Assembly (NCBI GenBank): GCA_964016885.1
Contig: OZ024745.1
Location: 50,406,001 to 50,470,000, forward strand
Direction of reading: 5' to 3'
From: Eledone cirrhosa
Taxonomy: Eukaryota
DNA: 64,000 nt
This document shows, in pieces, positions 3,398 through 54,372 of the stretch; the stretch's first letter is position 1; each line of letters opens with the position of its first letter. A model generated the notes under the pieces. It was not told the DNA's origin, did no database searches, and saw nothing but the letters and a program-made list of their open reading frames with translations. The position numbers and the translations under genes were made by a program.

Positions 3398-3465
3398 CTC
3401 CATTGCCAAAGGTTTCAGGACCCTAGACAGTATTAACATATGACTAGTTTGTTCATCAGATAGAG
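3398..3465 (-). ncRNA. Hammerhead-like motif, cleavage site degenerate
   Basis: Minus strand: ctctat-CTGATGA...GAAA-cctttgg-CA-atggag. It lacks the U of the UH site. Confidence 0.4.
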
Positions 3466-3548
3466 GAGTTATCTATTATATATATATATATATATATATA
3501 TATATATATATATATATATAGAATAGAACAAATATTTAATGCGTATCA

Positions 3549-3633
3549 ACCTGTTACGCACATTTCACAGAGGATTGGCTCAAGGCAACCCATATGGACC
3601 CGAATCCTGTATCGATCTGCTCGTCAGACTGGT
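3549..3633 (-). ncRNA. Hammerhead ribozyme motif (type I, long stem II)
   Basis: Minus strand: accagt-CTGACGA-gcaga...tctgt-GAAA-tgtgcg-TA-acaggt. Confidence 0.65.
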
Positions 3634-4049
3634 GACGCGACAAGATATATTTTTCATATGTAAACGACACTTCCTCGTTTTTTCTATTATATACACTCTG
3701 CCTGTGCATAGAGTGTTTGATTTGGTACCGACACTAGTATTTCACCGTAATACCTACACTATATATATATATAAAATTAGTTCCATAACATATTAACAAA
3801 ACAACTTTGAGGACACGTGTTTCACTCAACGGATTTCAACTCCAGTTGAAAATATGTTGGGTGAAACACGTGTCCTTGAAGAAGTTTTGCTAATATGTTG
3901 TGTAAGCTAGTTAAAAAACAACTGAGCTTAATCCAATCATTAAATTTTCAATCACGGTAGTTTTACAATACTACAGCGCATACACACACACACACACACA
4001 CACACACACACACACACACACACACATATATATATATATATATATATAT

Positions 4050-4420
4050 AGTTTTGCAAGATTTCTTATATGAAATCGTGTGAAATAGATATTGTCATAC
4101 TTTGGGAGGGTCATGCCAAAATGGAACATGGGCGTACACTAGAGAACATAGAGATAAAAATGATATCCACAAAAAGAAAACACGCAATGATCCGACAAAT
4201 TACAGAAGCGAAAAACATAAACGAACTCCAACCAAAATTAAACAGAAAACATGAGTGGAATAGCAACAACATCACAGCTAGTCATGAGGGACAAGATAAA
4301 GACATACAGACACACAAGAACCAAACTAATTAGGGAGAATATAAAGACAAACAGGGGTACATAAGAACAAAACTGATAAAACAAACGAGACACACTCAGA
4401 TAGAACACGCAACTAACTTT
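4050..4420 (+). mobile_element. 5'-truncated Penelope-like copy related to 29082-32783
   Basis: Same start after (TA)n (gttttgc..tatatgaaatcgtgtga..gggagggtcat). ENIEIKMIS...RQITEA...PKLNRKHEWN matches the GIY-YIG C-terminus DNIEIRIIS...RQIREA...PRLNRKNEWN. Confidence 0.8.
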
Positions 4421-5664
4421 TGAGTCCTCTTTTTTACGTTTGTCAGTATTACAGTATTACACATATGTATATATATATATATATATATATATATATATTT
4501 ATTATAGTAGAGTTTGTGTGTGTGTGTGTGTGTGTGTGTGTGTGTGTGTGTGTGTGTGTGTGTGTGTGTGTGTGTGTGTGTGTGTGTGTGTGCGCGTGTG
4601 GTTATTAGAAGCCAAAGCTACACAGAACTTCGAAATACGGTTTGTAAAAAAGAAAACATTAGATATTACAGTTGGCCGCCAAAATCGATGGGCTGGCCAC
4701 ACCTGGAGCATCTCTGATCATTGGTTAGGTCTAAAGGATCAGGTCTGACCAGGGTATTAAACAACATCAACAATACCGATAACTGTACCCATTTATATTC
4801 TTGCATCTACTCAGCCCCCTCTTACTGGAACACCCTTCACACACACACGTTCATATATATATAGGAGAAAGTATGACCCCGACGGCAGAGCTCAAGCCGT
4901 TTCGACGGCTATTTCTATGTATATATATATATATAAATATATAAATATATATATATATATATATATATATATTTATATATATATATATATATATATACAT
5001 AACGAAGGAAATGTGGTAAGGAACCAGATGGACCATAACGCACCAAAGTACTCAATACTTAGGGTAGTAGAGTGGGTGATAGGAACGAGTAGGACCCCGA
5101 CGGCTGAGCTCAAGCCGTTTCGACGGCTAATTCTGGACTAAATGAAAATTATATATATATATATAAAATTAATATATATATATATATAAATATATAAATA
5201 TATATATATATATATATATATATATATATATATATATATATATATATATATATATATAAATATATATATAAATATATATATATATATATATATATATATA
5301 TGTGAAAAAATGGGGAGAAGAATACTGCAGGTTGCACATGGATAACATGTAATAAAATAAGTCCCTCATCAGTGATTTGCTGACGATCATAGATATTTCG
5401 TATATCTCATATAAAATAATACACCCAATTTTCCACACAATAAAGTTAGTTATCACCCCGAACGTAGGAATATACTCACTTATTTCCTAATGTTTGTTGA
5501 GTGAGTTGGGATTTGGCCGGAGTATCGCTAAAAGCTTCCTCCGATAATGTATATATATATATATATATATATATATATATATACATGTATAAATATATAT
5601 ACATGCAGTCATATATAATATACATTTACATACAGTCAGACACACGCTTATGTATATATATATA

Positions 5665-5985
5665 TATGTGTGTGAGTGTGTGTGTGTTTTGTTTGTTCAT
5701 TTATCAACTATTATGCATACATACACACACACACACATATTTATATACAGATATGTGTGTGTGTGTGTGTGTGTGTTTTGTTTGTTCATTTATCAACTAT
5801 ATATATATATATATATATATGCATACACACACACACACACACACATATTTATATACAGATATGTGTGTGTGTGTGTGTGTGTTTTGTTTGTTCATTTATC
5901 AACTGTATATATATATATATATATATATATATATGCATACACACACACACACATATTTATATACAGATATGTGTGTGTGTGTGTA
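5665..5985. repeat. Triple tandem duplication of a microsatellite-mosaic unit
   Basis: Three copies of (gt)n-tttgtttgttcatttatcaact-(ta)n-gcatac(ac)n-atatttatatacagatat. Confidence 0.9.
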
Positions 5986-51648: not shown

Positions 51649-52471
51649 ATTTCATATATATTTTGACCTTCTCACTTACTTTTGGGATGTTTCCATACAG
51701 GTGTTCTTTTGTCATGTGTTGCTGCCACACACATCAAGGACCACACATAGCATTCTTCTATAGCAACCACTGTGTCTCTTTTCCGGTCATTTCATAAGTG
51801 TCCATGTCTTGCTTCAGTAAGTGGGAAGATCAGAATGTTAACTCTGTCTATCAGGATTTTGTACACAACATCCAGAAGAGAAATGTATTTATGTATGTGT
51901 GCATTTGTGTATGTATATGTGTTTATATATGTATGTGCAGGGACATAGAAATATTCAGATTGGTGTCTGAGTGTGCAGTAAGCTCCCTGCAAGTAAGAGA
52001 TCCTGGAACCTCATATAGATATCTCTTTAGGAGAGGGAAACTCTGATGTAAAACCTGTGACTCAATAGTAACTGATGATATTTATCTGTTCTTCTTTTCA
52101 TATTATTGCTGTTGCTGCTCCACGAGTGGGATTGGTCCAATGCAAAACCTGTCCTCACTATAAAAACTTCACACACAGGCATCACTTGATATCAAGGGAA
52201 CTTTGAATGATGTGAATGGTTGGATTTGTTCGCAACACCCACATCACTCAAGCTGATGTCGTTTGAAAGCCATACTCAATCAAGGGGTGGCTGCCAATAT
52301 ATATGTATGTGTGTATATATAATTATTCTATGGTTTTCAAAATGTGATATAAAATAAAATAAAATAAAATAAAGCCTCAAAAGTATTTTGAAGCAAGACT
52401 ATACAGAATACAGTGTTATAGAGAATTAGTAAACAATAATGATATAAGGAAGATAACTGAGGAATACTCAC

Positions 52472-52553
52472 TGCAGGTATAGTACTAAGAGCATATGTGT
52501 TTCCACGTACCACTCGACGGTCATACATAATATTGCTGTACATAAGTACCTCC
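52472..52553 (-). CDS. RSPH3: RSPH3 coding exon 2
   Basis: Encodes EVLMYSNIMYDRRVVRGNTYALSTIPA, containing the hallmark RSP3 motif NIMYDRRV.RGNTYA. Acceptor ctccaag, donor gtgagt, and phases 2/0 fit the neighbouring exons. Confidence 0.95.
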
Positions 52554-52801
52554 CTTGGAGAAAATAAAAACGGAAAAAAAATATTGACAATATCATTGCA
52601 CCAGTAACAAGTGTTTTAATTACTAGTCAAGTAGCATTAAATAAAAAGCCCACATTATATTAACCACAACTCCAGCATTCCAATCTAATAATAGGTATTT
52701 ACAATGGTAGAATTACTTTTTATGGTTGTTTCTGTGCACATAGAAGTGTGTGGTCAAGCACCAGCCCTATGATCCCATGGTAATTACTAGTATGTACTTA
52801 C

Positions 52802-52920
52802 TCAGGTGGTTGTGCTAACTGTTTGTCCTTGTATTTCTTACGATGAGACACCACCCTAGGTTGACTGGAGAATGTATAAGGTGGACCAGCCTCGGCACCA
52901 CTACGTCTCTGCTGTAACAT
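52802..52920 (-). CDS. RSPH3: Radial spoke head protein 3, coding exon 1 (ATG at 52920)
   Basis: Encodes MLQQRRSGAEAGPPYTFSSQPRVVSHRKKYKDKQLAQPP, resembling the RSPH3 N-terminal YT.S.PR motif. Acceptor tttcag lies just upstream of the ATG and donor GA|gtaagt is at 52801 (phase 2). Confidence 0.85.
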
Positions 52921-53954
52921 TGTCACAACCTGAAATTCTGAAAAGAAAAAAGATAAATTAATAAATATAAACAAAAAAATTATATATATATATATATATA
53001 TATATATATATAAATACATAATCGGAGAAAGCTAAAAGCGATACTCTGGCCAAATTCCAACTCACTCAACAAACATTAGGAAATACCTGAGTATATTCCC
53101 AATTAAAAGTTTGGGGTGCTAACTATATTGTATTGTGTGGATAATTGGCTGTATTATTTCATATAAGATATATCAAATATATCATTTCCCAGATGACTCG
53201 TTTCATTATAAGATTTCTACAAGTTGGGTGAAATTATACCAAGTTATGTAGAAGCTTGTATAAGATCAACAGATACTTATTCAAGTGGGCTCTTATAAAT
53301 CTTTAGTGGGTAGCCAATAACATTAATATTGAGAACTAAATCAACATCAATATTTAGCGATAATCACCATCAGTGCTTGAGGGGATTGCTAGGTTGTTAG
53401 TCCAGCAGTTCTAAAGAAAATCTCACACTGTCCTAAAAATGGGAGGAAGGAGGCTACCACCAAAAAACAATACATGCGCAGGTCGTTGAACTCTGACAAG
53501 AATTCAAGCCACGTGCTAAGAACTCAATTGGATGTGAAAAAATAACTATATGTGCGCATCGCTTTATGAAACATATAGATATTTTCTCGGGCAAGGTTTT
53601 TGAGTGTATATATATATATATATATATATATATATATATATATATATATATATATATATATATATGTATATATATATATATATATATATATATATATGTA
53701 TATATATATATATATATATATATACACTCTCCTTTCCTAAGTATTGAGAGCTTAGCTGAAAATGGTCTTGCTAGTCTAAATTGCTAACTCCCAATCACTC
53801 TCTCTCTCTCTCTTTATATATATATATATATATATATATATATATATATATATATATATATATATATATATATATAATAAACTACCATTTGTACTGCCTC
53901 TCTGTTTTTTGTTCCTGTCTAATATTTAACTATATATATATATATATATATATA

Positions 53955-54372
53955 TAAGATCAAAAGATGGTTAAATGAGTTCCATGTATTTTATTATGTG
54001 CATTTCAAAAACAAATATCATCATGCAATAATATTTGTGTTTTCATCAGATAAAATAGGAGGACATGATATGAAGGTTAAAAACACTTGAGGATAGTGCA
54101 GTTTTAAATCAACATATGTTGATTTAAAACTGCACTATCCACAAGTGTTTTTAACCTTCATATCATGTCCTCCTATTTTATCTGATGAAAACACAAATAT
54201 TATTGCATGATGATATTTGTTTTTGAAATGCGCATAATAAAATACATGGAACTCCTTTAACCATCTTTTGATCTTATATATTATGTATACTCCAGTCCTA
54301 CAAACTGTAGAGTGCTTCTTATCCGATATCTGCATTGCTTTATTGTACTACAATAAAACTCACCTCCTACAT
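53955..54372. mobile_element. Second copy of the palindromic hammerhead module
   Basis: Reverse complement of 40965-41390, flanked by (TA)n. Confidence 0.7.
54176..54242 (+). ncRNA. Minimal hammerhead ribozyme (inverted partner at 53989-54055 on the minus strand)
   Basis: Same family as 41290-41356: ttttat-CTGATGA...GAAA-tgcgca-TA-ataaaa. Confidence 0.75.

Follow-up and report, generated by a model that had tools for sequence, protein, structure and literature searches.

The stretch of Eledone cirrhosa DNA analysed here (contig OZ024745.1 of assembly GCA_964016885.1, positions 50,406,001 to 50,470,000; 64 kb, hereafter the window) carries numerous hammerhead ribozyme motifs beside (TA)n tracts, ten of which had been listed in a preliminary description of the sequence. 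Our analysis indicates that these ten motifs are the pseudo-long terminal repeat (pLTR) ends of seven families of Penelope-like elements (PLEs) that bear an open reading frame (ORF), 5'-truncated in (TA)n tracts and with 3' ends that are likely set by a conserved hairpin. We assign this reading a probability of about 0.85.

The seven families are named A and C to H. Families H and C lie next to each other on the minus strand, both as truncated pLTRs of Hydra-type PLEs: H at 3367-3476, with its hammerhead at 3398-3465 and a C at position 16.1, and C at 3521-3759, where the hammerhead (3549-3633) follows an inverted 3' end and tail. Family D is represented by the truncated pLTR of a further Hydra-type PLE at 26600-26795(+), with its hammerhead at 26691-26747. 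The insertion at 29081-32781(+) is a 5'-truncated PLE of family E, which encodes a reverse transcriptase (RT) plus, at the C terminus, a GIY-YIG endonuclease, is interrupted by frameshifts and a stop, and has an inverted 5' piece with a tail. Its hammerhead (32540-32581, plus strand) is located in the 3' pLTR, as the preliminary description had stated. Family F, the truncated pLTR of an E-related PLE, occupies 37546-37812(+) (hammerhead 37623-37665) and is followed by a truncated 3' untranslated region (UTR) and pLTR of a Hydra-type PLE of family G at 37859-38251(-) (hammerhead 37871-37920). Family A forms two palindromes. The first, at 40988-41388, consists of two inverted truncated pLTRs with hammerheads at 41117-41183(-) and 41290-41356(+), a 97-bp tail (40988-41084) and a first tail hairpin at 41043-41069(-), which has a 4-bp stem, a 2-nt bulge and an inner stem. 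The second, at 53957-54370, has another inversion junction, hammerheads at 53989-54055(-) and 54176-54242(+), a tail at 54275-54370 and its first tail hairpin at 54289-54315(+).

For each of three block sizes, 200 dinucleotide-shuffled sequences served as the control for a strict type I scan of the window. The scan returned nine motifs, against shuffle means of 0.08-0.13 (maximum 2), and comprised eight of the ten listed sites and one unlisted site at 129-200(-). A slightly relaxed scan gave 11 matches with a C3-G8 core, against 0.31 in 100 shuffles (maximum 2), adding 32544(+) and a weak match at 26032(-). Motifs of two other kinds, which the preliminary description had left out, exceed their shuffled controls as well: there are 7 core variants with U3-A8, where shuffles averaged 1.0 and never gave more than 4, and 38 half-ribozymes of the 3' type, where shuffles averaged 9.2 and reached 15 at most. 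All ten listed stretches are present where and on the strands on which they had been described, and nine have an intact CUGANGA/GAAA/UH core with type I stem order; at 3398-3465(-) a C replaces U16.1, and the genomic copies carry U at this position. By core, stem order and above-chance count, the ten motifs are genuine type I hammerhead sequences. Rfam reported nothing in the window at its gathering threshold, which agrees with the expectation that standard annotation would miss these sequences, and an E-value scan gave only microsatellite-driven miRNA-type matches among the matches listed (150 of 205).

Masked self-BLAST placed the ten sites in seven families, where at least six had been proposed, with the four sites at 41 kb and 54 kb forming the single family A. 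The motifs had been called canonical minimal hammerheads, which fits 32540 and 37623, the only sites with an extra base before G10.1-C11.1 and a 4-nt stem III; it does not fit the remaining sites, which have a long stem II and a stem III of 6-14 nt. Stem covariation is clear in family D, for which 82 copies picked by their 3' flank were compared (90 were found, and 8 with an unaligned 5' side were dropped). Three stem II pairs switch Watson-Crick type (A-U/G-C 53/22, G-C/A-U 37/34 and U-A/C-G 63/13), and core columns are 99% conserved, against 79% within stem II. The core is also the most conserved part of A, C, G and H copies, where stem changes are mostly one-sided or rare. Beside Hydra-type ORFs selected by their protein sequence in 78 metagenome contigs, 69 motifs are in sense and 2 in antisense orientation.

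All seven families run into PLE ORFs in their longer genomic copies; 25-30 genomic loci were sampled for each. In family A, 28 of 30 long-ORF loci bear the palindrome arm downstream, the endonuclease frame is reached in 4 of 30 short loci, and one locus (L388) has an open 821-codon frame between two hammerheads 3,864 nt apart. Family E has open frames of up to 1,217 codons and a hammerhead at 29 of 30 endonuclease loci; it is a young family, as its endonuclease search gave 150 scored matches at 96-100% identity. The E protein contains an Asn-rich low-complexity insertion of about 170 residues, which is in frame in four long copies (L211:2346-5996(-); window 29390-29900). A selenocysteine reading of the E stop was considered and rejected, since the codon is TAG and intact copies have Gln. 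The F endonuclease lies about 240 nt upstream of the motif in 13 of 25 loci. For family G, pLTR and tail run into a Hydra-type ORF in locus L399, the same ORF lies upstream in locus L400, and most of the tail-to-ORF junction is covered by each of the 40 scored matches (15 inspected). Family D is linked to a PLE ORF directly in 2 of 25 loci and in inverted arrangement in one, and for H two of 25 loci lead to the same Hydra-type ORF. Tracing C took two walking steps; one endonuclease then proved common to 3 of 25 loci (77-87% nucleotide identity), with a fourth locus containing the sequence that follows it.

Five families (A, C, D, G and H) are, by their motifs, Hydra-type, and two (E and F) are Neptune/Nematis-like. 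Family A contains the full Hydra-clade set: a single ORF with the RT followed by a C-terminal GIY-YIG domain, the CxCx5C linker, CxxC and CxH, and no CCHH. It has RWT and DKT motifs, and 87 and 114 of 120 A homologs match the RWK-type and DKT patterns, respectively. The linker and endonuclease fragments of C, D and G fit the same clade, as does H by its N-terminal and RT part only. The Hydra-type families also show (TA)n insertion, a hammerhead-bearing pLTR, a tail and 5' inversion. E and F contain a Cx4CxxC linker, which fits the Cx2-5CxxC pattern of Neptune or Nematis, and CCHH with a C-terminal endonuclease; the two clades have such motifs in common (PMC8557442). Naiad, which has an N-terminal endonuclease and lacks a canonical hammerhead, was considered for its TA targets and rejected, because the endonuclease here is C-terminal and hammerheads are present.

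The genomic copies share a characteristic anatomy. Their common sequence has a ragged 5' limit, and on the 3' side of the ribozyme it breaks off at either of two constant positions, mostly against a TA tract; truncation at the 5' side, inversion and a tail correspond to the described anatomy of PLEs (PMC8557442). A second nearby copy is mostly inverted (A 14/30 loci, D 8/25, G 5/25, H 5/25). The two A palindromes in the window differ in their inversion junction and are predicted to fold as hairpins of -224 to -247 kcal/mol, in which the ribozyme is buried. Alignment of contigs from two sequencing runs to family A showed many variants. Two 'direct' D pairs about 1,045 bp apart were considered as a tandem unit; this was rejected, as they are neighbouring insertions. 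One short palindrome, located some 60 nt upstream of the ribozyme, is the site at which many A copies are truncated or inverted, and may act as a fold-back hotspot (window 41227-41245 and 54108-54123; also loci L003, L004, L009 and L014). Since each family continues into a PLE ORF and 5' ends are ragged, the listed modules are very probably 5'-truncated insertions of autonomous PLEs in (TA)n tracts. Dimer cleavage would not be expected from most genomic copies, because these are single or inverted.

Two further families, B and J, consist of head-to-tail, ORF-less units with one type I hammerhead per unit. Neither had been listed in the preliminary description. The B unit is 486 bp long, recurs as a direct repeat at 472-491 bp in 5 of 25 loci, has a tail that is the start of the next unit, and contains no ATG frame longer than 78 codons. 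The J unit is about 320 bp long, and dimers were found in two loci (L139 and L176). A comparison of 240 PLE proteins with both units gave no match. With two copies, a dimeric hammerhead is the predicted lowest-energy structure in both families (B, -61.5 against -50.2 kcal/mol for two monomers; J, -39.5 against -30.4 kcal/mol). Within the window, a B copy at 1-588(-) with an inverted 5' piece runs past the left edge and contains a type I hammerhead at 123-206(-) (core 129-200) with a palindromic 6-nt stem III and a predicted dimer fold. When RNA runs were searched for this B module (window 1-588), none was listed as containing it, a result that is neutral as to expression. J copies lie at 1957-2412(+), with a U3-A8 hammerhead at 2207-2243(+), and at 26814-27182(-), with a U3-A8 hammerhead at 26946-26982(-). 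Judged by sequence, B and J are true non-autonomous tandem units of the retrozyme type, which likely borrow a Hydra-type protein. They resemble metazoan non-LTR retrozymes (PMC7229834; 10.64898/2026.07.22.740005) in unit length (320-490 bp), tandem arrangement, lack of an ORF and the presence of a single type I hammerhead in each unit, but differ in that only monomers and dimers were seen and in their PLE-type tails, inversions and TA targeting. The ten listed sites are unlike the retrozymes described in these sources.

Hammerhead motifs are frequent beyond the window as well. A genome sample of forty evenly spaced 10-kb stretches (400 kb), taken at round positions on 17 large contigs of the 3.0-Gb assembly, contains 45 C3-G8 motifs, against 0-3 in ten shuffled sets, and 39 of these motifs have a TA tract no more than 300 bp away, as do 25% of random positions. 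The proposed tie of the motif to PLEs and (TA)n tracts, across many families, is borne out. The bootstrap range of 70-158 motifs per Mb corresponds to 2.1-4.7 x 10^5 for the assembly, with large contigs sampled, and the window, at 11 motifs in 64 kb, does not greatly exceed this density. Genomic loci fall into 82 sequence clusters, 24 of which have at least three members. Within the window, pLTR ends make up 4,345 of the 16,292 bases of 55 short inter-TA segments and occur in 25 of them, as counted with a pLTR-end library that is incomplete and partly contaminated by neighbouring repeats; the earlier view that such elements form much of the apparently unique DNA between TA tracts therefore holds for about a quarter of it. 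The 3' UTRs of C and G contain degenerate TA/TG repeats of their own, and in locus L400 (G000:C28:63530500-63540499) other PLE ends are inserted in those of a G element. PLEs with repeat-bearing 3' UTRs likely bring new targets along, which would explain the clustering of PLE ends.

The tails of A, C, D, G and H begin with RCTC, a loop and GAGYRC. This is part of a conserved hairpin, composed of GCTC, a covarying inner stem, a 2-nt bulge and GAGCAC, which is present in two copies in Hydra-type leaders. The pattern follows 115 of 485 hammerhead contexts in the genome, against 1.1 in shuffled sequence and 4 on the other strand, and is found in 11 of 24 families with at least three contexts. On the 78 metagenome contigs, whose Hydra-type proteins are 30-42% identical to that of A, there are 56 hammerheads next to a Hydra-type ORF, and 41 of them are followed by the pattern (0.65 shuffled, 5 reversed), which is spread over 29 of 42 sequence groups. 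Two hairpins 43-75 nt apart lie between ribozyme and ORF in 15 of 18 metagenome loci, which were chosen for having a first hairpin from 23 loci with a 5' hammerhead. If the 2-nt bulge is placed 3', the first, second and third inner pairs are able to form in 91/95, 63/90 and 41/54 instances, respectively; at other bulge offsets the first inner pair forms in only 2 to 25. The first inner pair is C-G in 62 and U-A in 27 of 95 instances (C-G in 25 and U-A in 14 by sequence group), and none of 2,000 permutations matched the pairing values, which are counts that ignore relatedness. The outer arms are GCTC/GAGC in 88 of 95 instances. Family B keeps both hairpins through compensatory outer-stem changes, and the J hairpin is a reduced look-alike. 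Rfam found nothing in eight metagenome loci bearing the hairpin. The pattern can also be seen in the supplement of PMC8557442, in the entry that directly precedes Hydra-1_Obim; neither 'hairpin' nor 'stem-loop' appears in the main text of that paper.

Insertions end 0-16 nt upstream of a hairpin in 81 of 83 mapped A copies and 21 of 23 B copies (both hairpins in each case), in 16 of 16 H copies, 9 of 10 J copies, 11 of 16 C copies and 31 of 51 D copies. Most of the remaining C and D ends are tail ends, where downstream leader sequence was lacking for comparison. By analogy with the Poseidon PLE studied in vitro (PMC11167929), a tandem or pLTR-led copy would be transcribed, after which the RT-endonuclease protein would bind its own RNA and nick a TA tract. 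Reverse transcription would be initiated internally on this RNA, at a point few bases 5' of either hairpin 1 or hairpin 2 that falls within an A/U-rich spacer able to pair with the nicked target. Two starts would give two 3' ends, with the stretch between them appearing as the tail, and synthesis would usually halt early or fold back, producing short single or palindromic modules. Since only 20-210 nt would separate the hammerhead from the start, every such module would retain it, and this proximity would explain the density without selection on dispersed copies. The hammerhead would act on the multimeric transcript of the parent, mostly as a dimer, while the dispersed copies are probably inert passengers. 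A precedent is the Poseidon PLE of Anolis, for which reverse transcription in vitro starts from two internal sites whose spacing equals the tail, with an AT-rich target, and for which ribozyme cleavage needs the protein and is dispensable for insertion (PMC11167929).

The explanations that compete with this reading differ in what they deny. That the motifs are chance matches in AT-rich, palindrome-rich DNA has a negligible probability: the genome is indeed rich in inverted repeats, and its U3-A8 matches are near background in the 400-kb sample (11 against 2-9), but the C3-G8 excess in window and genome sample, the sense orientation beside protein-selected ORFs and the compensatory stem changes all contradict it, and the shuffle and strand controls already refute it for the C3-G8 sites. 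The preliminary description had taken the modules themselves to be non-autonomous ribozyme-bearing retroelements; on this view, elements similar to retrozymes or short interspersed elements would be transcribed, self-cleave and re-insert. ORF-less head-to-tail units do exist in B (5/25 loci) and J, several A copies break at one palindromic spot, and all 25 G copies that have the 5' part start at the same microsatellite edge. However, L400 shows that the edge common to the G copies is a microsatellite within the 3' UTR of the parent, each of the seven families is connected to a PLE ORF, 5' ends are ragged, and the junction differs between the two A palindromes of the window; for none of the ten sites was a fixed unit lacking a link to a coding parent found. 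We therefore regard this explanation as improbable for the listed sites.

With the sites read as truncated PLE insertions, the role of the hairpin is the less certain part. It could be real but not set the start, serving instead as a DNA site for a dimeric endonuclease or as a promoter or translation element, with ends chosen only by microhomology of the A/T-rich spacer to the nicked TA tract. The nearly invariant outer arms would suit a protein site, the Penelope endonuclease of D. virilis needs tail sequence for recognition (cited in PMC11167929), one G end lacks a canonical hairpin, and folding energies are unremarkable. By contrast, the fixed 2-nt bulge and the covarying inner pairs indicate a single-stranded fold, B retains both hairpins by compensatory changes, and in A, H and B the ends are concentrated ahead of both hairpins, with spacings that differ, despite other A/T-rich stretches in these leaders. 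This comparison leaves such an alternative role rather unlikely and favours, with some reservation, a conserved hairpin in the element RNA that sets the reverse-transcription start and thereby the 3' ends of insertions. The wider proposal, that the Hydra-clade twin hairpin is bound by the RT-endonuclease, places two internal starts, explains the PLE tail and mobilises ORF-less retrozymes such as B in trans, we hold to be only slightly better than an even bet.

A number of observations weigh against the favoured interpretation. Only 8 of 32 mapped G ends lie before a hairpin and 23 are at the second end, after which no canonical hairpin follows, which weakens a universal hairpin rule. The hairpin is absent from E and F and from 13 of the 24 families with at least three contexts, and isolated hairpins are marginally stable (z -2.7 to +0.2, five folds). 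Part of the copies was left unmapped (A 14/97, H 13/29, D 28/79), and junctions are blurred by up to about 10 nt, as the spacer resembles the TA target. Copy counts reflect inheritance rather than independent events, the parent links of C, D and H are based on 2-4 loci each, and clades were called from motifs, with the definitions of PMC8557442.

The window contains further PLE-like sequences. An endonuclease remnant (4097-4240) of an E/F-type PLE lies at 4050-4467(+) with an inverted tail. Family I PLE ends at 4861-5149 are cut within stem II, leaving 3' half-ribozymes, and have a tail hairpin at 5048-5073(-); further I ends lie at 10320-10453 and 12870-13071. The I 3' half has a stable 5-bp stem III, and the parent ribozyme may act as a monomer. 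A TA-flanked palindrome at 55033-55827 has weak U3-A8 motifs at 55223-55253(-) and 55604-55634(+). These belong to modules with a GAAA-CCGG-UA 3' half and U3-A8 or altered 5' cores, which are also found at 27385-27414(-) and near 1009(-) and 37279(+) and are candidates for a further group of PLE-like ends. Another TA-flanked palindromic family (635-855, 44248-44394, 56008-56083 and 56762-56907) reads CUGAAGA in the middle of the inversion, after which come a stem and GAAA; it is probably a PLE end cut at the ribozyme core.

The region has other features as well. A long interspersed nuclear element (LINE) at 20976-24428(-) has an open 1,150-codon frame (APE endonuclease, RT, zf-RVT) and looks young; truncated 3' LINE copies or partial repeats follow at 25031-25813. 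A short frame at 11824-12285(-), without a Pfam match, looks by eye like a fragment of a mariner-type transposase. Six exons of RSPH3 at 47469-52926(-) encode residues 1-340 of 392; the final exon or exons were not located. One RSPH3 exon has 88% identity to Octopus vulgaris and 78% to Argonauta, which makes an octopod host likely. None of the listed hammerhead sites lies between these exons, and the A palindrome at 53957-54370 is located about 1 kb upstream of the first RSPH3 coding exon. About 3.6 kb left of the window, an open frame with C2H2 zinc fingers was found (L221:1133-2431(+)).

Several aspects of these elements have been described before. The Hydra clade of PMC8557442, including Hydra-1_Obim of Octopus bimaculoides, shares with the Hydra-type families RW-type and DKT motifs, the CxCx5C linker, CxxC/CxH, the lack of CCHH, (TA)n targets and a hammerhead near the 3' end; for Hydra-1_Obim, the (TA)n preference and hammerhead are given in the supplement. 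That paper describes few extra families and lists at least one from octopus, whereas at least five abundant families are present here, in which units are longer (3.9 kb in A) and 3' UTRs contain microsatellites. As in the minimal hammerheads of metazoan PLEs (PMC4209133), there are dispersed single motifs and opposite-strand pairs 100-700 bp apart, both interpreted in that study as truncated PLEs, together with a U3-A8 variant and a palindromic stem III. Families E and F agree with its minimal consensus; stems II and III are larger in most of the families described here. Poseidon (PMC11167929) is similar in its two starts spaced by the tail, its AT-rich target and its hammerhead just upstream, but its starts fall within one AC-rich stem-loop inside the ORF, whereas each Hydra-type end lies just 5' of its own copy of the bulged hairpin in a non-coding leader. 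Dispersed and opposite-strand hammerheads from truncated PLEs and the U3-A8 variant (PMC4209133), Hydra-clade (TA)n targeting (PMC8557442) and PLE-derived retrozymes (10.64898/2026.07.22.740005; PMC6765202) are thus already published. A 2026 repeat annotation of O. vulgaris (PMC13282606) mentions Penelope-like elements, and the word 'ribozyme' is absent from its text. Our search, which most subscription literature lay outside, found no published report of the twin hairpin or of octopus hammerhead abundance.

Hammerheads of truncated PLEs, seen here in a new host, are not new as such; what goes beyond this is the motif density together with the twin hairpin. PMC4209133 gives about 2,000-9,000 motifs per genome (about 9,000 in Xenopus tropicalis, about 4,000 in the coelacanth) and PMC7229834 about 5,000 in Mytilus and up to 120,000 in axolotl, compared with an estimated 2-5 x 10^5 here, although descriptors differ between studies. 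With about 3 x 10^5 motifs, this genome would be the densest natural hammerhead store among the published counts compared, which, taken jointly with twin-hairpin starts and mobilisation in trans, we consider marginally favoured. At about 100 motifs per Mb and dozens of families, PLE ends form a large under-annotated share of microsatellite-rich DNA, and they supply a natural library of hammerhead variants together with many long inverted repeats. The twin hairpin is a short, conserved and testable candidate for the RNA recognition of the PLE protein and its choice of internal starts, a question that bears on the mobilisation of retrozymes and on PLEs as TA-targeting insertion tools.

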